Assembly: GCA_963667425.1 (NCBI GenBank)
Contig: OY763407.1
Location: 1,930,281 to 1,994,280, forward strand
Length of the DNA: 64,000 nt
DNA from: a bacterium
GTDB lineage: Bacteria; UBP6; UBA1177; G963667425
Direction: 5' to 3'
Each line of letters begins with the position of its first letter. Position 1 is the first letter of the stretch. Shown here piece after piece: positions 42,939 to 63,147 of this stretch. The position numbers were made by a program, and so were the translations under genes. The notes below the pieces were generated by a model. The model ran no database searches. It worked only from the letters and a program-made list of their open reading frames with translations, and was not told where the DNA came from.

Positions 42939-43521
42939 TCTCATACTCCTAATATCAGATACTAACACAAAAAAATCAACGGGATTATATACCCCCATCC
43001 CAAGCTGTCAAACTATTTTTGTACAACACAAGCAAGTAGTTGTAATCACTGGATTTAATAGCCAAGAGACTCAATGGACGTTTTTAATTTTTACCCTCTT
43101 AAAGATATTTTTTCAACATTTTTCATAAAAAAATTTGACATTTTTTTAACTAATTGCTCTTTCTAAAGAATTCAAACACTTACATTTAATTGCAGTCACT
43201 TATACATAAAAAATGTAGCACAAAACAACAAATAGCCTAAAAATAAAAAAATGTTTACTTATAAAAAAACTCAACATTTTTTCTACACTGGAAATACAAA
43301 GACTTTTTATTGTTTTTTTTAAAATTAATGTTTTACTAAAAATAAAGGAATTTAAAAATAAAAAAAACTTTAAATATCATTATAAGCAATAACTTTATCA
43401 CTATAAACCACAGTGTTTTAAATTTTAAGTGCAAAACGTCATAACTATATAAGTATCTTGAAAAAAAAGTTAATTATATTATGATTAAGAGTCTTTATGT
43501 AATATTGCAGTGAGATGTGCA

Positions 43522-46470: not shown

Positions 46471-47375
46471 TTAGACCTCTCTTTTTTTATAGTAGGATTT
46501 GTAAACATACCTTTTACACTAAATCTATATGTTAGATTCTGTTTCTCTTTTTCATCTTTAAATTGTTCAAGTGCAAGATCTATCGGAGAAAGTGAAGCAA
46601 TTGTTCCCTTTTCCTTTTCTATGACAGTAACTACTATTTCAGGTCTTGAAAAGTTAAGCCTTGTAGGATTTAGAACAACTTTGCCTGTTATATTTATTTT
46701 AAGAGCTCCAGATATATCAGCTTTTTTTATAGTAAGTTTGTTATCTTTTATTGATGCATGTAAGGATAAAGTTCCAAGTTTTAAAGGCTTAACAGTAAGA
46801 CCTTTAATTTTACCTCCAAAAACAAGATTATTTCCGGTAATATCTATCTCGCCATTCATTTTCTTTGATCTGCAAAAAGAAACAGTACCGTTTAAAGTAC
46901 CTTTACCCGCCATATCAGGAAGCAGCGTTTTAAGTAGCAGAAAAGAAACATCTTCAGCATCAACATCAAAACATACGGAAGCTTTTTCAACATCAACATT
47001 GCCGGCAAGTTCTCCGCCACTACTATTGAAATCGTTCAAAACAAAATCAACAGATTTAGACAAACCAAGCATAGTTCCTAATGAAGGAGAAATTTGTGCA
47101 CCTTGAACGCCAATAATCTTCTTACCGCTTTCCAGCAGAGAAAAATCATCAAAAGAAACAGTTTTTAAAGGAGAATAATAAGAATCTACAGCCTTAACTG
47201 AATAATCTGTTTTAAGCATTGCTTCATTTATTTTTGAAATAACAAAATCTCCAGGAAAAAACAATTTTAAAGCAATAATTATCCCGATCAGGGCAGCAAT
47301 CTCATAAAATATAATTTTTTTAATAACATTTATAATATTGGCAGGTGCTAAAAATTTTTTTAATCTCTTTTTCAT
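46467..47375 (-). CDS. T2SS GspN-like bitopic membrane protein (positional assignment)
   Basis: N-terminal TM helix (IIFYEIAALIGIIIALKLFF) followed by a periplasmic domain; position after the L/M-like genes. Confidence 0.4.
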   Translation of the reverse strand: MKKRLKKFLAPANIINVIKKIIFYEIAALIGIIIALKLFFPGDFVISKINEAMLKTDYSVKAVDSYYSPLKTVSFDDFSLLESGKKIIGVQGAQISPSLGTMLGLSKSVDFVLNDFNSSGGELAGNVDVEKASVCFDVDAEDVSFLLLKTLLPDMAGKGTLNGTVSFCRSKKMNGEIDITGNNLVFGGKIKGLTVKPLKLGTLSLHASIKDNKLTIKKADISGALKINITGKVVLNPTRLNFSRPEIVVTVIEKEKGTIASLSPIDLALEQFKDEKEKQNLTYRFSVKGMFTNPTIKKERSK

Positions 47376-47911
47376 TCTACAGCATCTCCTTTAAGGGTCG
47401 CAACAACAATTGCCGTATCATAATTTCGCTTATCATATCTCTTTTTTATGGAAACAGACTCAACAAAAACAAAACGATTATCATTTTCTATTGAATATAG
47501 AAACGTCATCAGCTCAGGAAGAGGAACCGCTCTCAAGGAAAGTTCTATTCTTTCTATTTTTGTTTTCCCCTTTATTACCGGTTTTAATTCTTTTATTGTA
47601 CTTATTTCAATATTGACCGACTCTTTTATGCCGCTAATATATGAATTAAGATTAGTATGATTGTCAGCAAGCTTTTTATAGACTCTTTCTTCCGCTTCTT
47701 TTGAACGATTGTAAAGATTTTTATAACCTGCAATTTTCTGAAGCATTTTTGTTTTGCTCCTTGCATCTGAAGTTGCAGTTTCCAGAGTTGAATCCATAAT
47801 ATACCAAACGAACATGGTCATTATAAGAAACATTACAAGGACAAAAGCTCCGAGCAGACCTTTTTCACGTTGACTTAAAGATGAAATATAGTTAGTTATT
47901 TTATCTTTCAT
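47372..47911 (-). CDS. T2SS GspM-like bitopic membrane protein
   Basis: 179 aa, single N-terminal TM helix (LLGAFVLVMFLIMTMFVWYI); size and topology match GspM; overlaps neighbouring genes. Confidence 0.45.
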   Translation of the reverse strand: MKDKITNYISSLSQREKGLLGAFVLVMFLIMTMFVWYIMDSTLETATSDARSKTKMLQKIAGYKNLYNRSKEAEERVYKKLADNHTNLNSYISGIKESVNIEISTIKELKPVIKGKTKIERIELSLRAVPLPELMTFLYSIENDNRFVFVESVSIKKRYDKRNYDTAIVVATLKGDAVE

Positions 47912-49329
47912 TAGTTTGCTCCCTTGGTTTTCTTGGATTTGTCTTCTTTTGCCTTTTTTTCAGATTCCGTAACAAAATCAAATCCTATAGAAAAATCATT
48001 TTTCCCTTTTATATTTCTGATTTGCCCCTTATTGAGGTTTTTAACATTTTTGTGTGCTTCAAGATTTTCAACCATCTTATTGAAATCTTCAAGTTTGTCA
48101 CAGTTTCCTACGAACCTTACCTTTCCATCTTTAAAAGAAAACTCTCTTATTTCAATTGAACTTTCTTCAAAAGTCAGAAGCGGAAAAAGTTCTTCCATAA
48201 CGTAAAGAGATGAATAAGGATAAACTTTTTTCTTTTCGTTAATTTCATCACCTTTAATTGTTTTCTCCATCACAGACACAGCCTGCCTCAGACTGGGATA
48301 TTCTTTTCCAAGAATTTCTTTGGTCAGAGTTTTTGTTCTACTGTCAAGTTTTTCTATTTCACTATTCACGTTGGATATTTTTATCTGCATAGAAATTATA
48401 AAAATGATAAAAGCGGAAAAAAGCATTATGGAAACAGCTATCATTTTCCTCTTGTAAAATTCAAAACCGCCTTTATACGCAAATTCATCTTTTGCAAAAT
48501 TTGCTATTGCACCTTTTTCTATTGCTGACGGCATTTCTGCAAGAACATCAGAAAGGAAAATGGTCTTTGCTTCTTTTAAAGATGTTTTTAAATAACTTTC
48601 AATGGCTGATGGAATCAATGCTGTAATAAAAAAGAGCGCTGGTTTGCCTGAGAAAAAATCTGAATATGTTGAAACAGTGTTTTCAATAACGCTATCTATA
48701 CTTTTTTTGATCAGAATTTCTTCTTCCGAACTGCTTTCAGCATCTATTTTTCCCAAAGAACCAAGCCAATCCTTATATTCCGCATCATCTGAAATCCTTG
48801 ATATGCTTCTAAGTTCAATTTCCTTTACACCATCTCCTGCAACTATCTGGGATTTGTCATCAAGCATTGCGGAATAATCATCTCCAATAATTACAGATTT
48901 TTCTCTTTCACCTGAAGAGATAAATTCATGTTCAGGAATAATACTTCTTATTTTAGAACTGTGGTTTATGAAGCGGTCAACAATTTCAGCAACATCGCTT
49001 TTTTTGACAATATACACTGTAACCTGTCCGTTTTCCTGCTGTTTTATATCAAAAATTATTTCCGCAGTTTTAAAATGCGTTATAGTTTCTATATCCTGCT
49101 CTATTATCATTTCAAGCTGATTTTTTTTAACAACAGGATACTGCTTTATAAAATATAAAACTTTTGATGCCGGAAAAAGTATGTCAATAAAATCGAACTC
49201 TTTTAAAAAATCTTCAAGACCGGCAAAATCAATTTCTTTTGAACCTAGAAAAGAGACTTTATTATAATCTTTTTCAAACTTATAAAAAACAGCCGAACTT
49301 TCACCCATCCTGCATGAAGCGTATTTCAT
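47911..49329 (-). CDS. T2SS GspL-like protein (cytoplasmic domain, TM helix, periplasmic domain)
   Basis: 472 aa; ~290-aa N-terminal cytoplasmic region, one TM helix (MIAVSIMLFSAFIIFIISM), ~160-aa periplasmic region; position between the K and M homologs. Confidence 0.45.
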   Translation of the reverse strand: MKYASCRMGESSAVFYKFEKDYNKVSFLGSKEIDFAGLEDFLKEFDFIDILFPASKVLYFIKQYPVVKKNQLEMIIEQDIETITHFKTAEIIFDIKQQENGQVTVYIVKKSDVAEIVDRFINHSSKIRSIIPEHEFISSGEREKSVIIGDDYSAMLDDKSQIVAGDGVKEIELRSISRISDDAEYKDWLGSLGKIDAESSSEEEILIKKSIDSVIENTVSTYSDFFSGKPALFFITALIPSAIESYLKTSLKEAKTIFLSDVLAEMPSAIEKGAIANFAKDEFAYKGGFEFYKRKMIAVSIMLFSAFIIFIISMQIKISNVNSEIEKLDSRTKTLTKEILGKEYPSLRQAVSVMEKTIKGDEINEKKKVYPYSSLYVMEELFPLLTFEESSIEIREFSFKDGKVRFVGNCDKLEDFNKMVENLEAHKNVKNLNKGQIRNIKGKNDFSIGFDFVTESEKKAKEDKSKKTKGAN

Positions 49330-49338
49330 CTAAACCTC

Positions 49339-50508
49339 TTACTGTTCACGGTAATAATATAGGTTACCTTCTCTATCAACAACCATTTCAATGGTACTTA
49401 CGACACCATCTTTTTCTCCTGTAGAGACAATTTTGTAAATTGAACCCTTAACCTCAAGTATATTTTTAACATTACTGTTTAATGTAATTCCTTCTTTAGA
49501 TACAACGGAAATAAAATTATCAACATTTGTAAAACCAGTTTTGGCTCTTTCTGCAAGAACTTTTCCCATAAGTTCTCTCATAGCATCTTCATTTGAGAAA
49601 ATAGACAGACTTTTATCTTCAGCATAAGCTCTGATAATAGCTTCAAGCATTTGATAATCTGCTTTGACAATGTTTATCTTACCAGTGGAATAAATAGTTA
49701 TATAAGGATAAAGTATCTTATATATAACATTGTTTACACCATAAACCATATAAAGCTCATCCAGCGTATCCAATCTTGCATTTTTTAATTTATATGAAGG
49801 AATAAAATCATCATAAAGAGGAGAATCTCCGCCAGCCATATCGATCCAGTCCTTTATATTAGCAATAAGTTCTTCTCTTGATACAAATTCTTTTCTATCT
49901 GTTCCTTCAACAAACACAAAATCATAAATATCATCACTAATCATGCTTTGAAGAATAGAAACAATTGAATCAGACATACTTGAATCGAGCATATTGAGAT
50001 TTATTTTCCCATCTTCATTTGCAAATGCCAAACTGAAATCGCCGGGAAATTCAAAGAAAGGATCACCTTCATCTTCCTTCTTAACAGCAGCAGAACCTTC
50101 ACCGCCTTTTTCTCCAGAGCTTTTCTCTTCAGCCTCTTCTTTTTTATAAATATCTGTAATATCCGCAAAAGGTCCGGCTGCTGTAAATTCTCTAAGTATT
50201 GCTGTATCAAAAGGAACTATATCCCAAATTTCAAAAGAGGCTGCACTATCACCCAAAAACTGTTTAAGAGAAGTTTCAAGCTGCTTCTGAAGGTCAAACA
50301 CGACAACTGCAAAGTTAGCTCCTGACTGAGCGAGAGCTCTGGCTTCAGCTTTTTTCTTGTACTGCATAGCAAGTTCATATTCGACTTTGGCATTGCTGTT
50401 CATATCAAAAGCTATTGGGAGCATTATAGCTATCATAACTATGACAATAAGCATTGCAATTCCTCTGTTCGAATTGATATTTTTAAACCATAAAAGCAGT
50501 TTCTTCAT
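49339..50508 (-). CDS. gspK: T2SS minor pseudopilin GspK-like
   Basis: N-terminus NRGIAMLIVIVMIAIMLPIAF lacks the Glu+5 of other pseudopilins, as in GspK; large periplasmic domain. Confidence 0.55.
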   Translation of the reverse strand: MKKLLLWFKNINSNRGIAMLIVIVMIAIMLPIAFDMNSNAKVEYELAMQYKKKAEARALAQSGANFAVVVFDLQKQLETSLKQFLGDSAASFEIWDIVPFDTAILREFTAAGPFADITDIYKKEEAEEKSSGEKGGEGSAAVKKEDEGDPFFEFPGDFSLAFANEDGKINLNMLDSSMSDSIVSILQSMISDDIYDFVFVEGTDRKEFVSREELIANIKDWIDMAGGDSPLYDDFIPSYKLKNARLDTLDELYMVYGVNNVIYKILYPYITIYSTGKINIVKADYQMLEAIIRAYAEDKSLSIFSNEDAMRELMGKVLAERAKTGFTNVDNFISVVSKEGITLNSNVKNILEVKGSIYKIVSTGEKDGVVSTIEMVVDREGNLYYYREQ

Positions 50509-51161
50509 TAAAAAGTCAAAGGCCTCTTCATTTTTATATTAAAAACAGTCTCAATTTTAAGCGGCTTTGTATCGCCATCTGTCTCAGGCATTTCCAAAGT
50601 AAGTTTTATTTTTGGAGGAAGCGAGTTTGAGTAATCCATAGATTCACTATTCCATAAAGGTCGCCAATCTTTATCTGTTTCATTCCAGTATTCAAAAACA
50701 ATTTTTTCAAAACCTTTAAGTAGGGGAAAAGTCTGTCCGCCTTTCTCAGGGTCACCGTCAACCCACGAACTTTCACGCCTGTAAAGAACGTTTACTCCAT
50801 CTTCCTCTTCTCCATAGTATTCAATTTCTGTCTGACTGCATTCCTTAACATTTTCCTGCATCTTTATGTGATTAAAAGAAGTAAATGTAACATGTGTCAC
50901 CGGTTCGTCTTCTTCAGATTTAAAGATTGTTTTATGCGTAATTTCAGGAACACCCTGATGGGTTGTTAAAAACGCATTTTCCATATCTTTTCTGATAAGT
51001 TCAACCGTGAAAAATATCTTTCTTATCCCGTTTAAGCGCTCTTTTGTTCTCGATTTTCCAGTAAGAATATTTGAAAATGAAAAATATACAGAAGAAATTA
51101 TTACAGCAGTAACTGTCATTGCGATAAGGACTTCAAGTACTGTAAAACCTTTGTTTTTCAT
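50508..51161 (-). CDS. Prepilin-type pseudopilin (GspJ-like by position)
   Basis: MKNK-G-FTVLEVLIAMTV prepilin peptidase site with Glu+5. Confidence 0.6.
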   Translation of the reverse strand: MKNKGFTVLEVLIAMTVTAVIISSVYFSFSNILTGKSRTKERLNGIRKIFFTVELIRKDMENAFLTTHQGVPEITHKTIFKSEEDEPVTHVTFTSFNHIKMQENVKECSQTEIEYYGEEEDGVNVLYRRESSWVDGDPEKGGQTFPLLKGFEKIVFEYWNETDKDWRPLWNSESMDYSNSLPPKIKLTLEMPETDGDTKPLKIETVFNIKMKRPLTF

Positions 51162-51168
51162 AATTCTT

Positions 51169-51792
51169 TTATTTTCCCATTTTTAAAGGAGTGTTTTTTA
51201 ACATAGGAGAAGGACCTCTTGTTTTTGATGCAGAGTTTGAAGAAGATGTACCAGTTGTTGAAGTTGAAATAGATCTTGAACTTTGAGAGAAATCTGTAAC
51301 TGTTCCTGGAACATTTATGAATTTTGTAAGCTCAACTTTTTCAGATTCTTTAACCCCTTCTCCCCACATTATTTTTACAGTAAGCTTTCTGACTCTTACC
51401 TTAAAAAAATCTTCAATCATAGGCTGCACCATAGAAAGAGTGCTTGCAGCCTCAGTCATTTCATCATTAACATCATCAGCTTCAGAACCGACATTAAGAT
51501 CCGGCATAGGCATATAAACTTTCTTTATGCTGTAATACCATCTGAAACCTTCATAAAGATTATCTTCAAAATCACCTTCTTCTTCCTTATCCATAGTAGG
51601 AATACCATTTTTATCTATTTCAACATCAACATCATGCATTTTAAGCCATGCGAGCTCTGTTCCCTGATAAATTTTCTCAACTTTTTCAGAGTAACGATAG
51701 CTGTACATCACTATTCTACTTATAGAAACTAACGTTCCTGCAAGAATAACTATTGCAATAACAGCTTCGAGAAGAGTAAAACCTTTTCTCAT
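51169..51792 (-). CDS. Prepilin-type pseudopilin (GspI-like by position)
   Basis: MRK-G-FTLLEAVIAIVILAG prepilin motif. Confidence 0.6.
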   Translation of the reverse strand: MRKGFTLLEAVIAIVILAGTLVSISRIVMYSYRYSEKVEKIYQGTELAWLKMHDVDVEIDKNGIPTMDKEEEGDFEDNLYEGFRWYYSIKKVYMPMPDLNVGSEADDVNDEMTEAASTLSMVQPMIEDFFKVRVRKLTVKIMWGEGVKESEKVELTKFINVPGTVTDFSQSSRSISTSTTGTSSSNSASKTRGPSPMLKNTPLKMGK

Positions 51793-52640
51793 TTTCCCTC
51801 CACATCTTCCGAGTATTCAAACATTTTCTTGAAATCTCCAAGATCTTCGGGAATATCGCCTCTTGTTATTTTTGTATCTGCAAAAAAATCACTTTCTATA
51901 TAAAACAGCGGATCACCATCTTCTTCAGCAATTGAAAGATAGAAAGGGGTTACTCTGCCTGTTGGAAAGATATAAATTACTGATTGAGCAAGTGTTTTTC
52001 TTTTAAGTTTTGCAAGCTCTTCTTCAGAAAGTTCTTCTTCATTTACATCTTCCTGAGATTCCAATAGCTCTTCTCTTATAAGAGGAACCGGCGTACTGTA
52101 AGTAAAAAATTTATCCCAGACAAGACCGGAAGGAAGTGTCATCTTTTTTGATTCAGGATTATATTCCGGTAGTAAAACCTCTTTTATACTTTTTTGCGGA
52201 GGAACAAAATTTTCCCAATTATAATAGTCATTCATCTCATCAGATTCAGATGCTTTTGTTTTCATGATATCATAAAAAGTGTTTGCACCAAGATGCGAAC
52301 CATCACCTTCAAAAGTGTCACTTTTATCTTCTATATCTTCAAGAAGTTTTTCATTACGCTTTAAAACTTTTTCAATATCATCACCGGGAATTAATGAAAA
52401 AGGAGTTTCAGTACTTTCGGCATAATATTCGCCATTTTTTATATCTACTATAATTCTGATATATTTCTGTTCTCTTATAGACTTAAGGAACATTTTTTTC
52501 AGCAAAATATTGAAGTTACCAAGTTCAGCACTGGCTCTTGATTTAGTAATGTTCATGACGCTAGGCACAGCAACACCAAGCAATAGTGCCACCAAGGCCA
52601 TAGCCACAAGCATTTCTATCATCGTAAACCCCTTTTTCAC
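51789..52640 (-). CDS. Prepilin-type pseudopilin (GspH-like by position; unusually long, 283 aa)
   Basis: MKK-G-FTMIEMLVAMALVA prepilin motif. Confidence 0.6.
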   Translation of the reverse strand: MKKGFTMIEMLVAMALVALLLGVAVPSVMNITKSRASAELGNFNILLKKMFLKSIREQKYIRIIVDIKNGEYYAESTETPFSLIPGDDIEKVLKRNEKLLEDIEDKSDTFEGDGSHLGANTFYDIMKTKASESDEMNDYYNWENFVPPQKSIKEVLLPEYNPESKKMTLPSGLVWDKFFTYSTPVPLIREELLESQEDVNEEELSEEELAKLKRKTLAQSVIYIFPTGRVTPFYLSIAEEDGDPLFYIESDFFADTKITRGDIPEDLGDFKKMFEYSEDVEGK

Positions 52641-52656
52641 AAAGAACTCCCTTTAA

Positions 52657-53097
52657 TTACTCTTCTTCTTCGTTTTCCCAGTTTGCAATATCATCACCGC
52701 CACCTTCTTTTCCATCCGGTCCAAAAGAATAGAGATCGTAACCATCTTCACCGTTTGAACCTGGAAAAATATAGATATAGCTGTTTTTCCATGGATCTAA
52801 AGGGACTTTTTTCCCATCAAGAATCTTTTCTTTTACAAGAGAATCAAGTCCTTCTTCTCCGGCAGGATATTTACCTTTTTCGCTCTTATAAAGATCAAGA
52901 GCATTCCCAAGAGTTTTTATATCCATATTAGCCTGTTTGATCTTAGATTTTTCAAGCTGTTTCATAAGACCAATACCGACACCGCCCATAACAACAGCAA
53001 GAATTGTTATGGCAATCATAATTTCCATAAGAGAAAAACCTTTTTCATTTCTTTTTTCCGAAAAAAGTTCTTTTAAGAAATTCTTAATAAAATTCAT
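52657..53097 (-). CDS. gspG: T2SS major pseudopilin GspG
   Basis: G-FSLMEIMIAITILAVVMG prepilin site plus the GspG-specific C-terminal signature (DPWKNSYIYIFPGSNGEDGYDLYSFGPDGKEGGGDDIANW); GGAGG Shine-Dalgarno upstream. Confidence 0.85.
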   Translation of the reverse strand: MNFIKNFLKELFSEKRNEKGFSLMEIMIAITILAVVMGGVGIGLMKQLEKSKIKQANMDIKTLGNALDLYKSEKGKYPAGEEGLDSLVKEKILDGKKVPLDPWKNSYIYIFPGSNGEDGYDLYSFGPDGKEGGGDDIANWENEEEE

Positions 53098-53110
53098 TGT
53101 TTCCTCCGTT

Positions 53111-54340
53111 TTATCCTATAGATTCATTAATTTTAAAAATAGGCACAATAATTGAGAAAATTATAAAACCAATAACCAGTCCAAGTGTCGCAAGCATTAT
53201 AGGCTCTATCATTGAAGTGAGTCTTTCAAGAGTATAGCGAACCTCTTTCTCATAAGAATCTGCTAATGTCTCAAGCATTGATTCAAGTTCACCGCTCTGC
53301 TCTCCAATACTTATCATACTTATAACTATCGGAGGGAATTCTCCAGACCTTTTAAGAGGAACCGAAATGGATTCACCCTCTTTTATATTTTCTTTTGCAA
53401 CAGCAATAGCAGTTTCAAGAACTTTGTTTCCAACAACTTTTTTAACTATGTCAAGTGCTTTAAGAATAGGAACACCGGCATTTAAAAGAGTTGCAAGTGT
53501 TTTTGCAAAACGGGAAATAGCTATCATTCTATTAATTCTGCCGAAAATCTTTACATTTATAAGAAACTTATCCCATCTGAAAAGACCTTTTTCCGTTTTT
53601 ATGTAACGTTTAAAAGAAATAAAGCCTCCGACAGCAACTATAATAACAAGCCACCAGTAATTAGAAAAGAATGAACTTAAACCTATCATAAATTTTGTCT
53701 GTATAGGCAGTTCCATATCCATGGAATCAAACATTTCGGAAAGTTTCGGAACAACGACAATAAACATTATAGAAATAACAATTATTGACATGACAAGCAG
53801 AATAATAGGATAAGTCATGGCAGAACGAACTCTGTTTTTAAGGTCCAGCTGCGATTCAAGAAAATCGGCAAGTCTCAAAAGAACTTTGTCTAATGCACCA
53901 CTTTCTTCACCTGCTGCTATCATATTGCAGTAAAGATCAGAAAATGTATCAGGAAAATCCTTGGCACTTCTTGAAAAGCTGTAACCTTCCTGAATTTTGT
54001 TTTTAACAAGCATCATCGTTTCTTTAAGATATGCATTCTGCTGTTGTTCTGCAACTGCTCCAAGCGCTTCAACAAGCGGAATACTTGCCTTCTGAAGTGT
54101 TGCGAGAAGTCTTGTCATGGAAGCGACTTCATCTAAAGAAGCTTTTTTTGAACGGAGAGAAAGAAGCATTTTAAGATTTGTAAGATCAAAAGCATCTTTT
54201 GATGATTTTTCCTTTATATCCGAAACAAAAAGTCCTTCTGACTGAAGTTTCATTTTCAAAGTATTTCTACTCTCACTTTCAGTAATACCTTTTATCTCTT
54301 TTCCGCTTTTATCAACTACTTTATATGAAAAAAGAGGCAT
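53111..54340 (-). CDS. gspF: T2SS inner-membrane platform protein GspF
   Basis: 409 aa, two repeated GspF/PilC-type cytoplasmic domains and three TM helices. Confidence 0.85.
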   Translation of the reverse strand: MPLFSYKVVDKSGKEIKGITESESRNTLKMKLQSEGLFVSDIKEKSSKDAFDLTNLKMLLSLRSKKASLDEVASMTRLLATLQKASIPLVEALGAVAEQQQNAYLKETMMLVKNKIQEGYSFSRSAKDFPDTFSDLYCNMIAAGEESGALDKVLLRLADFLESQLDLKNRVRSAMTYPIILLVMSIIVISIMFIVVVPKLSEMFDSMDMELPIQTKFMIGLSSFFSNYWWLVIIVAVGGFISFKRYIKTEKGLFRWDKFLINVKIFGRINRMIAISRFAKTLATLLNAGVPILKALDIVKKVVGNKVLETAIAVAKENIKEGESISVPLKRSGEFPPIVISMISIGEQSGELESMLETLADSYEKEVRYTLERLTSMIEPIMLATLGLVIGFIIFSIIVPIFKINESIG

Positions 54341-56031
54341 TATGAATCCTCCTGAGTAACACGAAGAATTTCATCAGGTGATGTTATTCCTTTTACCGCT
54401 TTTAAAGCACCATCTTCTCTTAAAGTCAGCATTCCATTTGAAGAAGCTATTTTCTTTATTTCAGAAGAACTGCTTCTGTTTACAACAGCACGTCTCATTT
54501 CATCATCTATTTTTATAAGCTCAAAAATACCTGTTCGTCCCTGATAACCTATACCTCGACACAAATCACACCCTTCGGCACGATAAAAAATATGAGATTC
54601 ATATTCTTGCGGATCCAGACCCAAATCCTCAAGTATAGCAGGTTCAGGATGATATGGTTTTTTACAGTGGGGACACAGTATTCTTACAAGTCGTTGCGCA
54701 AGAACACCAACAATAGTTGATGTCAGAAGAAATGGCTCAACACCCATATCAGTAAGCCTTGTAAAAACAGAAGGAGCATCATTTGTGTGTATAGTGCTCA
54801 AAACAAGGTGACCTGTAAGTGCAGCCTGTATTGCTATGTCAGCTGTATCTTTATCTCTGATTTCTCCAACCATTATAATATCAGGATCCTGACGAAGAAT
54901 AGATCTTAAACCATGAGCAAAAGTAAGCCCTATTTTACTGTTTATATGAATCTGATTTATACCTTTAAGCTGAATTTCAACAGGATCTTCTTCTGTTATG
55001 ATTTTTACATCAGGAGAATTTATTTCTGTTAAAGCGGAATAAAGAGTTGTCGTTTTTCCACTTCCGGTAGGACCGCAGACAAGAAATATTCCATGCTTTT
55101 TATTTATCAGCTCTCTCATTGTTTTAAGATCTCTGGATGTAAAGCCTGAAGCATCAAGAGAAAGTTTCTGTGATTTTTTATCCAGAATTCTGAGTACTAC
55201 AGACTCGCCATGAGTAGAAGGAAGAGTTGAAAGTCTTAAATCTATATCATTTCCGGCAATCCTTACTTTGATATTACCATCCTGAGGAAGTCTTTTTTCA
55301 GAAATATTAAGTTTACCCATAATTTTAAGCCTTGTAATAAGACCCGCCTGAGCAGCTTTAGGAACTCTCTGAAAAACATTAAGTTTGCCATCTTTTCTGA
55401 ATCTGACCAGAACTTCATCTTCAAAACTTTCAAAATGAATATCACTTACTCTGTCTTTTGCAGCTCTGGCAATAGTATTATTGACAAAACGGATAATTGG
55501 AGCTTCATCATTACTGTCAATAAGATCAGGAATTGATGTATCATCTTCGGCAGACATTTCCTTAAATTCTTCTGCATTAAGACCTTTGTCTGCAGTTTCG
55601 ACACGACTATAGAGATTGTTAATGATATCCATTATCTTAATATCATTTACAAGAAAAGGAACCGCTGTTTTTCCATAAATAAGATAAAGCTGATTAAAAA
55701 GAAGAGAAATCTCATTGCTGGAAGTAACCACAATCAGTTTGTTGTTCTCTTCACATAAAGGAATTGCCATATACCGTTTTGCAAGAAAAATAGGAAACTG
55801 CTCTAGCATAACAAGATCTGCCTTTTCAAGATCCTTTTCATCAAAAAACTTAAAACCGGATTGTTCCTGAAGAGAATTAAAGAGATTTTCAATAGTCAGA
55901 GATGTTTCTTCCCTAAGTATCGAACCTATTTTCTGGTTCTGATTCTTAGACTGAGAAACAAGAGCATCACCAAGCTCTTTTTCTGTTATAAAACCTTTTT
56001 CCAGAAGTATTTCGCCTATTTTCTTTTTCAT
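54340..56031 (-). CDS. gspE: T2SS ATPase GspE with N-terminal MshEN-like domain
   Basis: Walker A (GPTGSGKTT), Asp/His boxes, tetracysteine zinc motif (CPHCKK ... CDLCRGIGYQGR); N-terminus KIGEILLEKGFITEKELGDALVSQ. Start set at ATG 56031, which overlaps the gspD stop. Confidence 0.9.
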   Translation of the reverse strand: MKKKIGEILLEKGFITEKELGDALVSQSKNQNQKIGSILREETSLTIENLFNSLQEQSGFKFFDEKDLEKADLVMLEQFPIFLAKRYMAIPLCEENNKLIVVTSSNEISLLFNQLYLIYGKTAVPFLVNDIKIMDIINNLYSRVETADKGLNAEEFKEMSAEDDTSIPDLIDSNDEAPIIRFVNNTIARAAKDRVSDIHFESFEDEVLVRFRKDGKLNVFQRVPKAAQAGLITRLKIMGKLNISEKRLPQDGNIKVRIAGNDIDLRLSTLPSTHGESVVLRILDKKSQKLSLDASGFTSRDLKTMRELINKKHGIFLVCGPTGSGKTTTLYSALTEINSPDVKIITEEDPVEIQLKGINQIHINSKIGLTFAHGLRSILRQDPDIIMVGEIRDKDTADIAIQAALTGHLVLSTIHTNDAPSVFTRLTDMGVEPFLLTSTIVGVLAQRLVRILCPHCKKPYHPEPAILEDLGLDPQEYESHIFYRAEGCDLCRGIGYQGRTGIFELIKIDDEMRRAVVNRSSSSEIKKIASSNGMLTLREDGALKAVKGITSPDEILRVTQEDS

Positions 56032-58553
56032 CAATACTCCTCATCATCGATAGCAGGAACTTTTTCCTTTGCAGAATCAAATATTTCATCCTTAATCTGG
56101 GTATCCTGCATACTTCCATCAGGAGTTATTATTTTTGCATCTATTTTACTGTTTATATGCTGTTCAATAAGTTCATCTTCTCTTTTCGATTCAGAGTTTA
56201 TTTTCTGGAAAAGAGAAAGCAGCATTCCTCTTTTCTTTTCCATAAATATGTTATTCTGGACATCTTTTATTTTACCGTAAAACTTCTTTGCGAATTCTTC
56301 TCTCTCTTTTGTCTTTTTCTGATAAATTCTGTCAAAATCTATTTTACTTTCAATAATATGAGGAGTGAGAATAAGAAGAAGATTCGATTTCTTATTTGTT
56401 TTTGTAGTGTATTTAAAAAGATTTCCAAGAACAGGAATATCGCCAAGTAAAGGAATTTTGTTTTCATATTCAGAAACGTAATCCTTCATAAGACCGCCGA
56501 TAACTATCGTCTGCTCATTTTCAGCATTTACAATAGTTTTAGCAGATCTTTTAGTAGTAATATAACCGTAGCTAGTCTGGGCACCAAGTTCTGTAACCTC
56601 CTGCTGAACATCAAGTGTCATATAACCACCGTCATTGATTTGAGGTTTTATTTTAAGTTTAAGCGCAACATCTTCTCTTGTATAAGTTACAGTACTTCCT
56701 GCCGTGCTGTTAATAATCGTACCTGAAGGGAAAGGAACTGTTTCACCTACTGTGATTTCAGCTTCTTCGTTATCTGTGGTAAGAATATGAGGAGTCGACA
56801 TAACATTAACGTTAGTATCACTTTTAGCTGCATTAAGAAGCATACCAACAGAAGGAACTCCACCAAAAACACCAATACCAGGAATATCTTCTGTACTGCT
56901 TACCGTTGAAGAACTAAGCATACCTGAAACAAAACCAGGAGTTGGAGTTGTAAGAGCCTTTCCAAAGAATATAGGCACTTTTTCTCCATTAATGTTTGCA
57001 TTATAACCACCGGCAGCATAAGCAAGACCATATTCTGAGTCTTCCTGCACATTTACTTCCATAATTATTGCTTCAACAAAAACCTGTTTTCTTCTCTGAT
57101 CCAGCTCCTTTATAACATTTTTCAGACTTTTATAATCCCTAAGAGAAGCAACAACAACCAGAGAATTTGTAGATTCATCAGCAGAAAGGCTGACCTCACC
57201 TTCAAAAATGGAAGAACCTTTTGAATTTTTCTGATTTCCTTTATATTGAGCAACCTTTGAAAGAGTTGTTACAAGATCTTTTGCTTTGGCATTCTGAAGA
57301 GGAACAACATGAACTTCTCCCTCACCCTCAACTTGAGTATCAAGTTTAGAAAGAATTGTTATTGCAAGTTTATAGTTTGCCTTTGTTGTAAGAAAGACAA
57401 GCTGTTCACTTCTGTCATCAGCAACAATATGAATAAAGTTTGCAACATCATCATCAGAAGATGCAGTAATATCTTTTTTATTTCTAGCTTTATTGTTATT
57501 GTTTGCATTAACCCCTGCTTTATTTGATATTTCAGCAAGAGAAGGGACTTCAGCACTGTTTTTGTTTCTCTTGTTCATCTGGGAAGCAAGCGGCTTAAAA
57601 ATTTCTTCCAGTGTTTTCTTGGCATCTGTGGGGGAAACATGTTTAAGCTTTACAAAGAAAAATTCAGGAATTTCTGTTTCCGGCCTTGGTTTATCAAGAT
57701 CTGCAACAACTTTAAGCATTTTTCTAATATTTGCGGCATAATCAACAATAAGAATAGTCTTGTCATCAAAAACCAGAAGACTTCCACCCTTGCCTCTGAA
57801 AATATTAAGAACTTTCTGCATCTCCTTAGCATCTGTATTTGCGACTCTTATTATTGTTGCAACCATTGTAAAAGTGTAAGGTATAGCATTTTCTTTACCA
57901 TAATATGGAATATTAGTTGAAACCGCATCTTTCTCGGACATAACGATAGTATATTTCCCATCTGGAACCACGGTTACATTGTTTACAGAAAGAACAGTAA
58001 GAAATGTTTTATATGCATCTTTTATAGTAACGGAAGAAGGAGACATTATTGTGACTTTTGATTTAGCAAGACGTTCCTGAAGAATAAAATTCTTTTTCAT
58101 TTTTTCGCTAAACCATTTTATAACATCAAGAAGAGGTGTTTCCTGAAAATCAAGCCAGACTTTAGCATCATCAGGAAGAGGTTTGTCAGTGTGAACAGAT
58201 TCAATTTTTATTGTATCTGAAGCTGTAGTTTTTCTTGAAGAATCATATTCCGGAACAGAAGGAACTGCAGGAGTTGTTGTAGCTCTGTTAACAACTTTTG
58301 CCTGCGGAGCTTTTACTTCTTGTTTTACAGAATCATCCTTTTTTTCCTCTTTATTGGAATCTTCCTCTTTCTTTTCACTATCTTCATCCTTTTTTTTATC
58401 TTTTTCAGGCATTTTCTTTAATTTTGTATCACCCAGTCTTGCCTTTGTAAGAGGAAATTTTATCTTACTCGGATCTAGTTTCATCTGAGCATCCAGGACC
58501 AGAGGTAAAACAAAAATAATTAAAAACAAAATCGAGAGCAATCTGCTTTTCAT
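56031..58553 (-). CDS. gspD: T2SS outer-membrane secretin GspD
   Basis: Signal peptide; N0/N1-type domains; C-terminal secretin domain (IPLLGDIPVLGNLFKYTTKTNKKSNLLLILTPHII); ~100-aa charged low-complexity insertion after the signal peptide. Confidence 0.9.
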   Translation of the reverse strand: MKSRLLSILFLIIFVLPLVLDAQMKLDPSKIKFPLTKARLGDTKLKKMPEKDKKKDEDSEKKEEDSNKEEKKDDSVKQEVKAPQAKVVNRATTTPAVPSVPEYDSSRKTTASDTIKIESVHTDKPLPDDAKVWLDFQETPLLDVIKWFSEKMKKNFILQERLAKSKVTIMSPSSVTIKDAYKTFLTVLSVNNVTVVPDGKYTIVMSEKDAVSTNIPYYGKENAIPYTFTMVATIIRVANTDAKEMQKVLNIFRGKGGSLLVFDDKTILIVDYAANIRKMLKVVADLDKPRPETEIPEFFFVKLKHVSPTDAKKTLEEIFKPLASQMNKRNKNSAEVPSLAEISNKAGVNANNNNKARNKKDITASSDDDVANFIHIVADDRSEQLVFLTTKANYKLAITILSKLDTQVEGEGEVHVVPLQNAKAKDLVTTLSKVAQYKGNQKNSKGSSIFEGEVSLSADESTNSLVVVASLRDYKSLKNVIKELDQRRKQVFVEAIIMEVNVQEDSEYGLAYAAGGYNANINGEKVPIFFGKALTTPTPGFVSGMLSSSTVSSTEDIPGIGVFGGVPSVGMLLNAAKSDTNVNVMSTPHILTTDNEEAEITVGETVPFPSGTIINSTAGSTVTYTREDVALKLKIKPQINDGGYMTLDVQQEVTELGAQTSYGYITTKRSAKTIVNAENEQTIVIGGLMKDYVSEYENKIPLLGDIPVLGNLFKYTTKTNKKSNLLLILTPHIIESKIDFDRIYQKKTKEREEFAKKFYGKIKDVQNNIFMEKKRGMLLSLFQKINSESKREDELIEQHINSKIDAKIITPDGSMQDTQIKDEIFDSAKEKVPAIDDEEY

Positions 58554-58593
58554 CTTTTCAAACTCCGTTTATATAAAATTTAAATTCTTCAAA

Positions 58594-59565
58594 TTATTCT
58601 ATGGTATACTCCATAGATTCAGGTTTTCCGCCTCTTACAATATTAAGAGAAATCTTATCGGCATTTCTAAGCCTCTGATAAGCTTCAAGAGCTTTATCAG
58701 GACTCGAAATATCAATTCCATTTATGTTTTTTATGACATCTCCATTCTGAAGTCCTATTTGACTGTAAAGGCTGTTCGGCCTTATCGAAAAAATCTTAAA
58801 ACCAGCTTCGCCTCTGGCAGGAACAATTCTGGCCTGTCTTGCAAGAACGTTAAGATTTGTTGTCGCTTTCATTATTTCGCTTCTTGAAACGACATAACTA
58901 TGATCATCTATTTTTCTAATATTTACATCCTGTTGAGTCGGCATAGCATTATTTATTGGTGCTTTTACAGCGACATCTTTATTTTTCGGCCTATTGGTTA
59001 TTGCATCACCAAGACACCTTACACCTGAAGGTGTTTCAAAAACAACTATATTTCTATCAACATAAAGAAGTTTGGTTCCTTTATCAACCTCTTCCCCAAC
59101 AGAAATTACAGTGGGAGGAATCTCATCTTTTGTTGCTTTTTGTTCAACAGAAATGGAAGAATACTCCACAGGAATTGCAGGAACAATAGCCGTAAGCTTA
59201 ACACCATCCAAAGCCTGACATTTATCAGGATTGTTAAGATAATAGTTGATATCAGTAGGCTCGTTCTTAGATTCTTTTACAAGAGCTCCGTCAGTATTTA
59301 TTCCAGGTACAACAACAGAAAGATCTATCTGGCGCTGTTCCAGATCAAAAATATTATGCTCTGAAACAGATGTTTTATCTTCTCCAAAGAAAACTATTTT
59401 TTTATTATTAATATTACCTTCTGTTTTTTCGTAATAATCTTTTCCAAGCGGAACATAAATAATGTTTTTACCAACAGCAACTGAAATTGCAAAACCTGTC
59501 AATGCAAAGAAAAGAAAGGCAAGTGAAACAAAAACAGCGATATCAAAAAGAGTTCTATTTCTCAT
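58594..59565 (-). CDS. gspC: T2SS GspC-like protein with C-terminal PDZ domain
   Basis: Start at ATG 59565 with GGAAGGAG upstream; N-terminal TM helix (IAVFVSLAFLFFALTGFAI); C-terminal PDZ-like segment (GFKIFSIRPNSLYSQIGLQNGDVIKNINGIDI); first gene of the operon, immediately upstream of gspD. Confidence 0.6.
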   Translation of the reverse strand: MRNRTLFDIAVFVSLAFLFFALTGFAISVAVGKNIIYVPLGKDYYEKTEGNINNKKIVFFGEDKTSVSEHNIFDLEQRQIDLSVVVPGINTDGALVKESKNEPTDINYYLNNPDKCQALDGVKLTAIVPAIPVEYSSISVEQKATKDEIPPTVISVGEEVDKGTKLLYVDRNIVVFETPSGVRCLGDAITNRPKNKDVAVKAPINNAMPTQQDVNIRKIDDHSYVVSRSEIMKATTNLNVLARQARIVPARGEAGFKIFSIRPNSLYSQIGLQNGDVIKNINGIDISSPDKALEAYQRLRNADKISLNIVRGGKPESMEYTIE

Positions 59566-59674
59566 CGGCTCCTTCCAGAAAAATTTCAACGATGCCGATA
59601 TAAGCAAAAAAAATGCCAAAACCCTTTTCTTTAAATATCAACGGGTTACAAAACCGTTTTTGTATGCCAAAAAA

Positions 59675-59827: not shown

Positions 59828-61075
59828 ATGGAAACTGGCGATAAGCTCATAATTCTTGGTGAAGCAGCAAAATATGATGCCAGCTGCTCATCAAGCGGAA
59901 GTGAAAGAAAAGGAAAAACAGGAGAAACCGGAAGCGGACACAAAGCCGGAATATGTCACAGCTGGGCAAGCGACGGCAGATGTATAAGTTTACTCAAAAT
60001 TCTCCTTACCAACTATTGCATTTATGACTGTGCATACTGCATAAACAGAAGAAGCAACGATGTAAAAAGAGCAGCATTTACAGTTGATGAAGTGGTTTCA
60101 CTTACAATGAATTTTTATAAAAGAAACTACATCGAAGGCTTGTTTTTAAGTTCAGGTATAGTGAAAAATCCAGATTACACAATGGAACGAATGATGCTCG
60201 TTGCAAAAAAGCTAAGAAATGAAGAACATTTCAATGGATATATTCATTTAAAAGCTATTCCAGGAGCAAGCGAGACACTTATAAAAGAAGCAGGACTGTA
60301 TGCTGACAGAATGTCCGTTAACATCGAACTACCTTCAGAAAGAAGTCTGCTTTTACTTACAAACAAAGATAGGGGCTCCATTCTCTCTCCGATGAAACAG
60401 ATAACAACAACTATCCATGAAAACACTGAAGAGAGGAAATTTTCAAAAAAACTTCCTATTTTTGCACCGGCAGGTCAGACAACCCAGCTGATAGTTGGAG
60501 CAACACCGGAAAACGACCTCAAAATCATAAAACTCACAGAAGCAATGTATAAGAAATACAATCTAAAAAGAGTCTATTATTCAGCATTTGTTCCTGGAAG
60601 TAATGATAAACGTCTTCCTGTTGTTTCAACGCCGCCTCTTGCACGTGAACACAGACTTTATCAGGCAGACTGGCTGTTAAGATTTTATAATTTTGAGGCC
60701 GATGAAATAATTTCTCCTGAATCACCATTTCTTTCAGAAGAAGTAGATCCTAAAGCATCATGGGCAATGAGAAATCTTAACCTTTTTCCAGTTGAAATAA
60801 ATAAAGCGTCACTTGAGACACTTTTAAGAGTACCTGGTATCGGAAAAACTTCCGCTCTTAAAATTGTCAGTGCAAGAAAAAATGGAAAACTCGACTTTGA
60901 ACATCTTAAAAGAATGAATGTTGTCCTTAAAAGAGCCCGTTTTTTTATAACATGCAAAGGAAAAATGATGGAAGGAACACTTCTTAAAGAAAATATAATT
61001 TACGAAGCAATGAAAAAGACATCAACAAAAGCCGGAAGTACAGACCACATTTATGAACAGCTATCTTTATTTTAA
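59828..61075 (+). CDS. Radical SAM protein of the putative DNA modification/repair family (TIGR03916-like) with C-terminal helix-hairpin-helix
   Basis: C-x3-C-x2-C radical SAM cluster motif (CIYDCAYC); ~415 aa; C-terminal HhH motif (LLRVPGIGKTSALKIV). Confidence 0.75.
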   Translation: METGDKLIILGEAAKYDASCSSSGSERKGKTGETGSGHKAGICHSWASDGRCISLLKILLTNYCIYDCAYCINRRSNDVKRAAFTVDEVVSLTMNFYKRNYIEGLFLSSGIVKNPDYTMERMMLVAKKLRNEEHFNGYIHLKAIPGASETLIKEAGLYADRMSVNIELPSERSLLLLTNKDRGSILSPMKQITTTIHENTEERKFSKKLPIFAPAGQTTQLIVGATPENDLKIIKLTEAMYKKYNLKRVYYSAFVPGSNDKRLPVVSTPPLAREHRLYQADWLLRFYNFEADEIISPESPFLSEEVDPKASWAMRNLNLFPVEINKASLETLLRVPGIGKTSALKIVSARKNGKLDFEHLKRMNVVLKRARFFITCKGKMMEGTLLKENIIYEAMKKTSTKAGSTDHIYEQLSLF

Positions 61076-61077
61076 AA

Positions 61078-61833
61078 ATGATATTTATATATGATGGCAC
61101 GTTTGAAGGAATGCTTTCAGCTGTATTTGATGCAATTCTTGTAAATGAAGAAATATTTATTGAGACAGAAGAAAATCATACTCCAAGACTTTTTCACGAA
61201 ATAACTAAAATTCAAACATCGACTGACAAAGCAAAAAGAGTTTCCAGAAAAATTATAGAAAACATGGGAACATTTACATTTTCAGTTGTTGCATATCTTT
61301 TTCTTTCCGAAGATAAAGAAAGAGGAACATTAGCATTTCATCTCATAAAGGAAGGGCTAAAACATGGCAGAAACGTTACATCATTTCTGCAAAATAAAGA
61401 AGTAGCAAAAGCAATGGGAATAAGAAAAAAAGTTGCAAACGAAAAACACCGTCTTCTTGGATTAATAAGATTTTCAGAGCTTTCAAATAACATTCTATAT
61501 GCTCCATTTGAACCTGACCACAACATTATAACACTATTGATTTCTCACTTTAAAGAGCGGCTTTCAGCCGACAGATGGATGATTCACGATATAAAAAGAG
61601 GACTCGCCATTTTTCATGAAAACGGAACCATTCAAAATATTGAATTTAAAGATGAAGAAATATCAAAAACCAATCTGGAAACACTTTACGGCATTTCAGA
61701 AAATGAAAAAAAGCTGTCATCAATGTGGAAAGAATTCTTTAAAGCCGTTGCAATAGAAGAGAGAATAAATCCGAAACTGCAAAAGCAGTATATGCCTAAA
61801 AGATACTGGAAATATCTTAAAGAGACACATTAA
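61078..61833 (+). CDS. DUF4130 / TIGR03915-like probable DNA metabolism protein, partner of the radical SAM gene
   Basis: Characteristic N-terminus (IFIYDGTFEGMLSAVFDAIL); ~250 aa; 2 nt downstream of the radical SAM gene. Confidence 0.65.
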   Translation: MIFIYDGTFEGMLSAVFDAILVNEEIFIETEENHTPRLFHEITKIQTSTDKAKRVSRKIIENMGTFTFSVVAYLFLSEDKERGTLAFHLIKEGLKHGRNVTSFLQNKEVAKAMGIRKKVANEKHRLLGLIRFSELSNNILYAPFEPDHNIITLLISHFKERLSADRWMIHDIKRGLAIFHENGTIQNIEFKDEEISKTNLETLYGISENEKKLSSMWKEFFKAVAIEERINPKLQKQYMPKRYWKYLKETH

Positions 61834-61836
61834 GAC

Positions 61837-63147
61837 CTATTTCAGAACAACGCCCCATTCAAGAAGTGAAAACCCTTTTCTTTCAAAACTTTTTATCTCT
61901 GGCTTAGCAAGAAAATCCCTGCAGGTATCATCTTTTTTTATGACATAAAAAAGACGCTGAACAGAATCAGGAGTTTTGGAAATATTTATTTTTATCAGCT
62001 TATCTATCTCATCTGCTGTCTGAGGATAAATATCATAACAGCTTTCATTAAGTCTTGGAATCCACCATTCAATAAAATCTTCCACTTCCTTACCTTTAAA
62101 ACCGTAACGAGCAAGATTTTCTCTGAAAAATTTCTCCAGATTATCCTTTTTCACTGTCCAGCCAGTTTTATACTGATAAAAATCAGGATGCTGAGCTTCA
62201 TAAAAAAGATATCCATATTCACCATTAATCGTTCCATCAGGTTCAACCGTAACATTCCATCCATCACCATATTCAGGAATAGATTTTGTTACAAAACCGC
62301 CCTGAGGAAATTCAAGTGAAAGAGAAATATCCATTTTTTCTTCAGGATAAAGGTAAATATTTGGCTTATAATCCTGAGCCATCGCAGAAACTCTTATATC
62401 AATATAATTTGAATCTATAGAAACCGGCTCATCATATTGAGAACCATCAGAATCAGTAAAACTAAAAATATAATCGCCGATTGGAATATCAATAACAAAT
62501 TTACCGTTGGTACTAAAACAACCAACTTTTTTTCCATCTTTGTCATAAACTGTAACATCTGCAAATAAAGAAGAAGGACCAAAATAATCCTGAACTATAA
62601 AGATATTTCCATTAACATAGTTTTTCATAATGGGATCAAGATTTACCGATATGTTATCACCATATTCTGCATAAGTATAATTTGTAAAAAAACCTTCTGA
62701 TGTCTCATAAATAAAATATGAAGGAGTCTCGCCGTTGTAAGGATTTTCCTCATCAACTTCAATAACCTTGTTACCTTCACTTTGCATAGTTAAAGTATCA
62801 AGAAGATTCCCCCAGCCATTTGAATATACTGAAAGAATAATATTTTTTGCATCAGTATCAAGATTTTCATTACTGTATTCAACACTTAAATCTTTACATT
62901 CTGAAACAATATCATCATCTGCTGCTTCATCGTTTGTTTCATCAGAAATTTCATCATTTATCTCGTCAGCCACTTCATCTGCAGTTTCGTCGTTTATTTC
63001 ATCTGCAACTTCATCACTGATTTCATCAATATCAGTTTTAGGTTCAGCTTTATCATTGTCACATGAAATAAAAATAAAAATTAGTAAAAATACAAAAATT
63101 AAACTCTTCATAACATACCTCTTTATTATTTCTGCACAACGCCCCAT
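61837..63147 (-). CDS. Lipoprotein with acidic repeat linker (tandem paralog A)
   Basis: Signal peptide plus lipobox (FIFISCDND); repeats of DE[VI][AS]DE[IT]ND; beta-sandwich-like middle region and conserved C-terminal domain (FRENLARYGFKGKEVEDFIEWWIPRL ... LLEWGVVLK). Confidence 0.65.
   Translation of the reverse strand: MGRCAEIIKRYVMKSLIFVFLLIFIFISCDNDKAEPKTDIDEISDEVADEINDETADEVADEINDEISDETNDEAADDDIVSECKDLSVEYSNENLDTDAKNIILSVYSNGWGNLLDTLTMQSEGNKVIEVDEENPYNGETPSYFIYETSEGFFTNYTYAEYGDNISVNLDPIMKNYVNGNIFIVQDYFGPSSLFADVTVYDKDGKKVGCFSTNGKFVIDIPIGDYIFSFTDSDGSQYDEPVSIDSNYIDIRVSAMAQDYKPNIYLYPEEKMDISLSLEFPQGGFVTKSIPEYGDGWNVTVEPDGTINGEYGYLFYEAQHPDFYQYKTGWTVKKDNLEKFFRENLARYGFKGKEVEDFIEWWIPRLNESCYDIYPQTADEIDKLIKINISKTPDSVQRLFYVIKKDDTCRDFLAKPEIKSFERKGFSLLEWGVVLK

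Follow-up and report, generated by a model that had tools for sequence, protein, structure and literature searches.

A 64,000-nucleotide stretch from the genome of an uncultured bacterium of the lineage UBP6 (GenBank assembly GCA_963667425.1, contig OY763407.1, positions 1,930,281 to 1,994,280; hereafter the window) encodes a type II secretion system (T2SS) whose ATPase, GspE, carries a genuine MshEN domain in its residues 1–150, made up of an MshEN_N helical bundle and an MshEN_C/N1E-like subdomain. Its tandem 24-residue motifs keep all of their ligand-contact residues, so that the domain is predicted to bind, most likely, one molecule of cyclic di-GMP (c-di-GMP) in the manner of MshE and of PilF GSPII-B. 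We therefore regard the N-terminal part of this protein as probably a binding-competent MshEN sensor for c-di-GMP mounted on a T2SS ATPase. The locus had attracted attention through a first-pass annotation of the window, which recognized an MshEN-type motif at the GspE N-terminus and proposed that secretion is gated by c-di-GMP.

Each 24-residue segment was scored at the 11 positions that the MshEN motif constrains, once with the consensus as first given by Wang et al. (PMC5013675) and once with the version that Neissner et al. (PMC11731258) widened to Arg, Lys or Leu at position 1, (R/K/L)LGxx[LVI][LVI]xxG[LVI][LVI]xxxxLxxxLxxQ; in the latter, we also admitted Ile as residue 2 and Phe as residues 11–12, following the V. 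cholerae form. Motif I (KIGEILLEKGFITEKELGDALVSQ) satisfies the extended consensus at every constrained position, is the sole 11/11 match in the six-frame open stretches of the window, and is unmatched by 5000 protein shuffles, none of which reaches even 10/11. The consensus fit claimed by the first-pass annotation is thereby borne out, as is the replacement of Arg by Lys, although the Ala it had written into LxxALxxQ is unconstrained, the published form being LxxxLxxQ. Beyond Lys-for-Arg, both motifs have Ile where the consensus has Leu at position 2, and motif I has Phe at position 11, a residue that the V. cholerae form permits. Turn and core of motif I are canonical (G13, L9, L10, F14 and I15). 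The weaker second copy that had been described after a six-residue spacer is also present as quoted: KIGSILREETSLTIENLFNSLQEQ follows SKNQNQ and reaches 8/11, missing the consensus with R40 (position 7), with T43 (position 10, where the turn Gly would stand) and with S44 (position 11), each at a scaffold or turn position.

Crystallographic and nuclear magnetic resonance work has assigned ligand contacts within the motif. Position 1 stacks on the ligand, position 2 provides a phosphate hydrogen bond and joins a Leu cluster that includes positions 17 and 21, the backbone amides of the position-3 Gly and the following residue reach N7 and O6, and the Gln at position 24 touches ribose and phosphate; positions 6, 7, 11 and 12 form the bundle core, and the Gly at position 10 forms the turn. 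In the window protein, the contact positions 1, 2, 3, 17, 21 and 24 fall into allowed classes in both motifs (12/12), with K4, I5, G6, L20, L24 and Q27 in motif I and K34, I35, G36, L50, L54 and Q57 in motif II. The sole change among them beyond position 1 is the conservative Leu-to-Ile exchange at position 2.

Residue numbers depend on the start codon. The open reading frame (ORF) list places gspE at 54340–56034 on the minus strand, starting at TTG 56034, but the ATG at 56031 is the likely start, because it follows a GAGGAG sequence at a distance of 5 nt, overlaps the gspD stop codon (TGATG) and coincides with the start of P0001, a database protein of 99 % identity that begins MKKKIGEIL. TTG 56034 is disfavored since it lies too near to the Shine-Dalgarno sequence. 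Counted from ATG 56031, the motifs therefore occupy residues 4–27 and 34–57; the string reported for motif I is found on the minus strand exactly as quoted, whereas the numbering reported with it, 6–29, was two residues off.

Profile searches recover the same region. The NCBIfam model NF053729 (“c-di-GMP_motif”, MshE-related) aligns end to end with residues 4–57 (model positions 1–53 of 53, E = 6.8e-9), with 35.4 bits for the full protein and 40.2 bits for the N-terminal 78 residues alone, at a cut-off of 38. A phmmer search of residues 1–144 against PDB sequences returned the c-di-GMP binding domain GSPII-B of Thermus thermophilus PilF (~1e-7), and also matches Geobacter PilB, Myxococcus PilB and V. 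cholerae MshE (5htl, 2.4e-4). Motif I aligns to PilF K167–Q190, and HMMER pairs K4, G6, L20, L24 and Q27 with PilF K167, G169, L183, L187 and Q190, and K34, G36, L50, L54 and Q57 with L196, G198, L211, L215 and Q218. Mutating PilF Q190 or Q218 lowers or abolishes binding (PMC11731258). The Pfam model PF05157 covers the C-subdomain only, and therefore Pfam annotation by itself overlooks the motif region, as Wang et al. remarked of the coverage of the older Pfam model.

We calibrated NF053729 on proteins of known behavior. Scores descend from V. cholerae MshE (85.2 bits) through PA14_29490 of P. aeruginosa (66.4) and the PilF domains GSPII-B (62.8) and GSPII-C (61.9), all of them binders, with the close relative P0002 at 62.4 bits. 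The non-binding PilF domain GSPII-A follows at 54.7 bits, the N-terminal fragment of the window protein at 40.2 bits, and the binder Bd2402 of Bdellovibrio at 36.3 bits, under the cut-off; P0037, an orthologue that has lost the motif, scores 10.9 bits. As the non-binder GSPII-A outscores the binder Bd2402, the profile score was rejected as a yes/no test of binding, and contact-residue identity was therefore used instead. The NF053729 score is a gauge of resemblance to the consensus, not of binding competence, and by it the window GspE ranks among the more diverged members.

An AlphaFold2 model of residues 1–150, built from a 48-sequence alignment (A1), has a mean predicted local distance difference test score (pLDDT) of 93.9. 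Four helices (residues 5–12, 17–29, 35–42 and 47–58; block pLDDT 90–97) are followed by an α/β subdomain with strands at 89–95, 98–103 and 122–127, so that the four-helix MshEN fold presupposed by the first-pass annotation is predicted, together with the α/β part. The SKNQNQ spacer forms the α2–α3 loop, and the α3–α4 hairpin that carries motif II is kept at a block-mean pLDDT of 90–92. Foldseek searches of the PDB gave 8pdk, 9gl5 and 5htl as top matches, at probability 1.00 and template modeling (TM) scores of 0.76–0.84. By TM score, the c-di-GMP-bound structures of PilF GSPII-B (9gl5, 8pfa, 8pdk and 8pkz; 0.75–0.84) and MshE lie closest, the latter, to which alignment had been proposed as a check, at 0.79–0.84 (5htl). 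The N-domain of X. citri PilB, which is without the binding motifs (PMC8389850), reaches 0.69, and the non-binders PilF GSPII-A and XpsE reach 0.58 and 0.52–0.62; weak partial matches were obtained to the N1 domain of GspE/EpsE complexed with GspL (4pht, 2bh1). A fold match by itself cannot prove c-di-GMP binding.

Relatives of the protein are numerous. A whole-protein search returned thousands of them, the nearest (64–69 % identity) from metagenome-assembled genomes of uncultured organisms and the next tier (46–51 %) comprising source-named GspE of Myxococcota or former “Deltaproteobacteria” and of Geoalkalibacter. Nearly all carry the tandem motif at their extreme N-terminus, and more than 100 have kept it; it is also present in the nearest relatives with a name, GspE of Myxococcota or former Deltaproteobacteria at 47–51 % identity. 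Conservation by position was read from an alignment of 114 GspE relatives, 36 close and 78 distant. The position-3 Gly of both motifs is present in 36/36 close relatives and, for motifs I and II, in 77/78 and 76/78 distant ones; the position-6 Leu is near-invariant and the position-24 Gln is conserved in at least 92 %. Ile at position 2 is found in 34/36 (motif I) and 31/36 (motif II) close relatives. The turn Gly is weakly conserved in the GspE clade, motif II having Lys there in 52/78 distant relatives, and spacers of 5 to 10 residues occur (in the close group 5 in 7, 6 in 10, 7 in 3 and 8 in 16 proteins). The departures of motif II thus fall at positions that vary within the GspE family.

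The remainder of the protein is that of a secretion ATPase. Its catalytic motifs are intact (Walker A GPTGSGKT, Walker B DPDIIMVGEIRD, His box TGHLVLSTIHTN) and the zinc cysteines CPHC...CDLC are present. The best-scoring NCBIfam model for the protein is GspE TIGR02533, with 614.7 bits slightly under the equivalog cut-off of 630.25; the PilB model TIGR02538 gives 575.9 bits (cut-off 675.65). With TIGR02538 below its cut-off and neighboring genes of gsp and not of pil or msh type, the reading as a type IV pilus ATPase (PilB or MshE proper) was rejected. The four-helix bundle is an extra relative to Vibrio-type GspE, as illustrated by the TIGR02533 alignment, which starts only at residue 77, and the TIGR02538 alignment, which starts at residue 4.

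Among solved structures, Thermus thermophilus PilF GSPII-B (8pdk, 8pkz) is the best match in both sequence and fold. Like the window protein, it has Lys at position 1 of motif I and no Arg at the stacking positions, its native motif reading KLGELLLQKGWISREALEEALVEQ, and the contact residues pair one-to-one. PilF K167 stacks on guanine, and the K167R exchange weakens binding 25-fold, from 6 nM to 150 nM (PMC11731258). Lys at position 1 is therefore harmless, because the native Lys of GSPII-B binds 25-fold tighter than Arg; the same residue occurs in D. geothermalis PilB2 and C. thermophilum PilB. Unlike the window GspE, PilF is a type IV pilus and DNA-uptake ATPase with three tandem GSPII domains. 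[quoted passage not shown] The family prototype, V. cholerae MshE (5htl), shares the two-subdomain fold and the tandem 24-residue motifs, located N-terminally on an ATPase of the GspE/PilB family, but serves the MSHA type IV pilus; both of its stacking residues are Arg, its spacer has 5 residues, and its turn glycines are canonical. Its sequence is only ~20 % identical to the window GspE.

Sensing of c-di-GMP by a T2SS ATPase has its experimental precedent in PA14_29490 of P. aeruginosa, a GspE-branch ATPase from a putative T2SS operon whose N-domain binds c-di-GMP specifically, with a dissociation constant (KD) of 0.48 µM; here binding has been demonstrated but secretion control has not (PMC4624772). 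PA14_29490 likewise deviates at position 1 of motif I, where it has Pro, whereas it retains canonical turn glycines and a 5-residue spacer and obtains 66 bits with NF053729 compared with 35–40 for the window protein. MshEN ATPases occur in typical gsp operons (Wang et al. 2016, PMC5013675). M. xanthus GspE (MXAN_2515–2502, gspCDEF?GG'HIJKLMN) is an MshEN-bearing T2SS ATPase encoded in the same operon order (PMC5013675 Supplementary Fig. 3a), and a 2026 survey lists Leptospira interrogans GspE, LIC_11571, as MshEN-bearing and part of a gsp operon, likewise of this order (PMC12943098). GspC and GspN of the window match the “delta” and “Leptospira” NCBIfam equivalogs, placing the operon in the type of M. 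xanthus and L. interrogans. From the GspE proteins of these organisms that of the window differs by Lys for Arg at position 1 in both motifs, the 6-residue spacer and the motif II turn without Gly; in the literature found, there was no binding test of either. In the validated binder Bd2402 of Bdellovibrio, motif II (RIGDYLIQNNQLSPHAFDLLLMEQ) has no turn Gly and a polar residue at position 11, and the spacer is only 3 residues long (PMC5013675 supplement). Lys, an unusual spacer length and the motif II departures each therefore have experimental precedent.

Related domains that do not bind give the opposite picture. XpsE (2d27, 2d28) and PilF GSPII-A (9g1w) belong to the same fold family but have lost contact residues that are kept in the window GspE. 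XpsE, like the window protein a T2SS ATPase with an extra four-helix subdomain, carries G11V, G40L, L54H, L58C and Q61V; GSPII-A keeps the scaffold, with Ala for the position-3 Gly, His or Arg for the position-24 Gln and Ile at positions 17 and 21. Canonical gammaproteobacterial GspE/EpsE (4pht, 2bh1) shares the ATPase core, the N1E-like subdomain and the role in the operon, and is without the four-helix MshEN_N.

Several observations weigh against binding, and most of them are also what an alternative reading can draw on, in which the MshEN domain is degenerate, does not bind c-di-GMP and persists as a structural or adaptor module, for instance for docking to GspL or another partner. Such a state is exemplified by Xanthomonas XpsE, PilF GSPII-A and X. 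citri PilB ND0, and GSPII-A in particular fails to bind while combining one good with one degenerate motif. In the window protein, motif II carries R40 and S44 in the core and T43 in place of the turn Gly, changes that might deform the α3–α4 hairpin; the spacer exceeds that of every solved binder by one residue; and the MshEN_C Asp that contacts guanine in MshE (D108) and PilF is apparently Ser or Asn in alignment A1, and therefore very high affinity is not assured. The NF053729 match is among the weakest of the calibration set and under the curated cut-off on the full protein, a score that also ranks GSPII-A above Bd2402, and the AlphaFold2 model represents the protein without ligand. Four orthologues, P0037–P0040 (64–66 % identical overall), are without the motif altogether. 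P0037 (L081 8001–9674), the one whose neighborhood was checked, starts MSLRETLVQYGIVAEEELDRLL and still lies directly downstream of a gspD secretin; the sensor is therefore a dispensable add-on to the secretion machine. Genes for c-di-GMP turnover or perception were not seen nearby either: Pfam scans of 30 ORFs of the window contained no GGDEF, EAL, HD-GYP or PilZ domain, six-frame searches for GG[DE]EF and HD...GYP patterns gave no match in the window and one spurious match in related loci, and Rfam found a c-di-GMP riboswitch neither in the window nor in 6 related loci, the gene searches covering 64 kb plus ~126 kb of related loci, which is too little sequence to infer absence. Against a degenerate domain, XpsE and GSPII-A have lost the very contact residues that the window GspE retains, the deviating positions vary across the clade and the contact residues are near-invariant, a pattern that argues for selection on the pocket, the validated binder Bd2402 shows the same kinds of departure, and the predicted fold is nearer to ligand-bound binders than to non-binders. 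We thus consider loss of binding unlikely, though a serious contender. That a leucine-rich amphipathic N-terminus resembles a loose consensus merely by chance can be set aside as practically negligible: the consensus consists mostly of Leu, Ile and Val, and a score of 8/11, as for motif II, arises in ~2 % of protein shuffles, but the full score of motif I does not, and two motifs stand in register at the extreme N-terminus. Shuffles, significant homology to profiles and PDB entries (E 1e-7 to 1e-10), the confident fold match and retention of the motif among relatives together refute it.

Two further readings accept a ligand but differ on its identity or role. The ligand might be a constitutive structural cofactor and no switch, bound very tightly in view of the Lys in both stacking places, or another cyclic dinucleotide such as 3'3'-cyclic GMP-AMP (cGAMP). 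Lys or Leu at position 1 tracks nanomolar affinity (6 nM for PilF GSPII-B, with K167R 25-fold weaker), the PilF authors themselves suggest a possible structural role of the ligand, and MshEN binds cGAMP weakly, with a KD of 0.33 mM. However, the affinity-boosting MshEN_C Asp of PilF seems to be missing here, and recognition of guanine O6 and N7 by backbone amides is kept in both half-sites, favoring two guanines; we hold this reading to be very improbable. It is also rather improbable that the protein represents a distinct MshEN variant, defined by Lys at both stacking positions, a spacer of 6–8 residues and an α3–α4 turn without Gly, that has altered affinity or nucleotide specificity and places a T2SS under the switch of a cyclic dinucleotide. 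If true, this would be a clean case of a bona fide T2SS, and not a pilus, under cyclic dinucleotide control, which so far has been deduced from binding.

For the preferred reading, a c-di-GMP sensor on the T2SS ATPase, the solved homologues suggest how the ligand would be held. As in 5htl and 8pdk, the two helical hairpins would hold one c-di-GMP between them, and K4 and K34 are predicted to stack on its guanines. Its phosphates and Hoogsteen edges would be hydrogen-bonded by backbone amides (I5/G6/E7 and I35/G36/S37), two clusters, L20/L24/I35 and I5/L50/L54, would cover the remaining guanine faces, and Q27 and Q57 would contact ribose-phosphate. Ligand binding may then unwind the first turn of helix α1 and re-orient the N1E-like subdomain, a movement that could alter how the ATPase hexamer engages the inner-membrane platform of GspL and GspF, such that high c-di-GMP would favor pseudopilus assembly and secretion. 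By analogy with MshE-driven pilus extension in V. cholerae, secretion may be gated by c-di-GMP, as the first-pass annotation had proposed. Reported effects on activity temper this functional claim: c-di-GMP shifts the ATPase activity of MshE in vitro only ~10 % upward and leaves that of C. perfringens PilB2 unchanged, and for no T2SS has gating of secretion by c-di-GMP been demonstrated.

The coordinates of the domains and of the surrounding operon are compiled in Table 1. The operon is complete, and its gene order gspC-D-E-F-G-H-I-J-K-(L)-M-N is identical in the 11/11 closest genomes. The 472-residue ORF at the place of gspL is kept in position and sequence (33–38 % identity) in 11/11 related operons; presumably it encodes a divergent GspL, on which the GspE N-domain would be expected to dock. 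In Vibrio-type GspE, the N1 domain binds GspL (PMC8389850).

Table 1. Features of gspE and of the T2SS operon, in positions of the window; residues are counted from ATG 56031.
Feature	Positions	Strand	Evidence or remark
gspE, type II secretion ATPase	54340–56031	minus	563 aa
Shine-Dalgarno sequence GAGGAG	56037–56042	minus	5 nt before ATG 56031; read from sequence
MshEN_N four-helix bundle (residues 1–60), predicted c-di-GMP pocket	55852–56031	minus	AlphaFold2 model, NF053729
Motif I (residues 4–27)	55951–56022	minus	11/11 extended consensus, 8/11 original
Spacer SKNQNQ (residues 28–33)	55933–55950	minus	6 residues, 5 in prototype
Motif II (residues 34–57)	55861–55932	minus	8/11 extended consensus, 6/11 original
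MshEN_C/N1E-like α/β subdomain (residues 61–150)	55582–55851	minus	PF05157 residues 68–145, 26.7 bits (cut-off 23.1)
N2 and C-terminal ATPase core (residues 173–557)	54361–55515	minus	Pfam T2SSE PF00437, 5e-137, 456.9 bits
T2SS operon	46467–59619	minus	Pfam and NCBIfam matches; gspE third gene
gspC	58594–59619	minus	PDZ domain; NCBIfam GspC_delta NF041515, 185 bits (cut-off 150)
gspD	56031–58553	minus	Secretin and N0 domain
gspF	53111–54340	minus	T2SSF
gspG	52657–53097	minus	T2SSG
gspH/I/J/K, four minor pseudopilins	49339–52640	minus	T2SSJ and T2SSK among matches
gspL candidate, 472 aa	47911–49329	minus	Position between gspK and gspM only; no Pfam or NCBIfam match
gspM	47372–47911	minus	T2SSM
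gspN	46467–47375	minus	GspN_Lepto TIGR04411, 80 bits (cut-off 50)

Within the operon, GspD contains a low-complexity stretch of ~100 residues rich in Lys, Glu and Asp (residues about 25–130), located ahead of the N0 domain (from residue 134 on according to Pfam). Such a stretch after the signal peptide is unusual compared with textbook GspD. Directly beyond the operon end and convergent with it lies a gene for a hybrid histidine kinase (43510–45960, plus strand) with HisKA, HATPase_c, two receiver-domain matches and Hpt, but without an output domain. Divergent from gspC are two genes on the plus strand, the first (59828–61075) encoding a protein whose CxxxCxxC motif (CIYDCAYC) is radical-SAM-like, the second (61078–61833) a protein of 251 residues; we take them to resemble the “putative DNA modification/repair radical SAM” pair. 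Two adjacent paralogous ORFs on the minus strand (61837–63147 and 63126–63947) share a near-identical C-terminal region of ~270 residues (…PNIYLYPE…EYGDGWNVTVEPDGTI…LEWGVV), and the former has an acidic, D/E-rich repeat (DEISDEVADEINDETADE…) behind a signal- or lipoprotein-like N-terminus. At 4884–7433 (minus strand), the window encodes an 849-residue protein that consists mostly of RCC1 repeats (RCC1-like PF25390, 1.6e-128), a type of protein uncommon in bacteria. The host lineage is low in GC content (35 %). Its 11 closest genomes (L001–L011; GspE identity 65–69 %) carry the conflicting NCBI labels “bacterium”, “Candidatus Sumerlaeota” and “uncultured Spirochaetales”, and their lineage is probably mislabeled or unclassified in public records.

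T2SS ATPases that bind c-di-GMP have been known since 2015–2016, and the locus in the window opens no new question in this respect; how ligand binding couples to machine activity is better approached in P. aeruginosa, M. xanthus or Leptospira. What the locus adds is a natural variant that may inform on the tolerance of the MshEN pocket, since both of its stacking residues are Lys, its spacer is longer and its second hairpin has no turn Gly, and P0037–P0040 offer a natural loss-of-sensor comparison set. If binding is real, T2SS secretion in this organism would be tied to c-di-GMP levels, which would be a useful annotation for an uncultured lineage.

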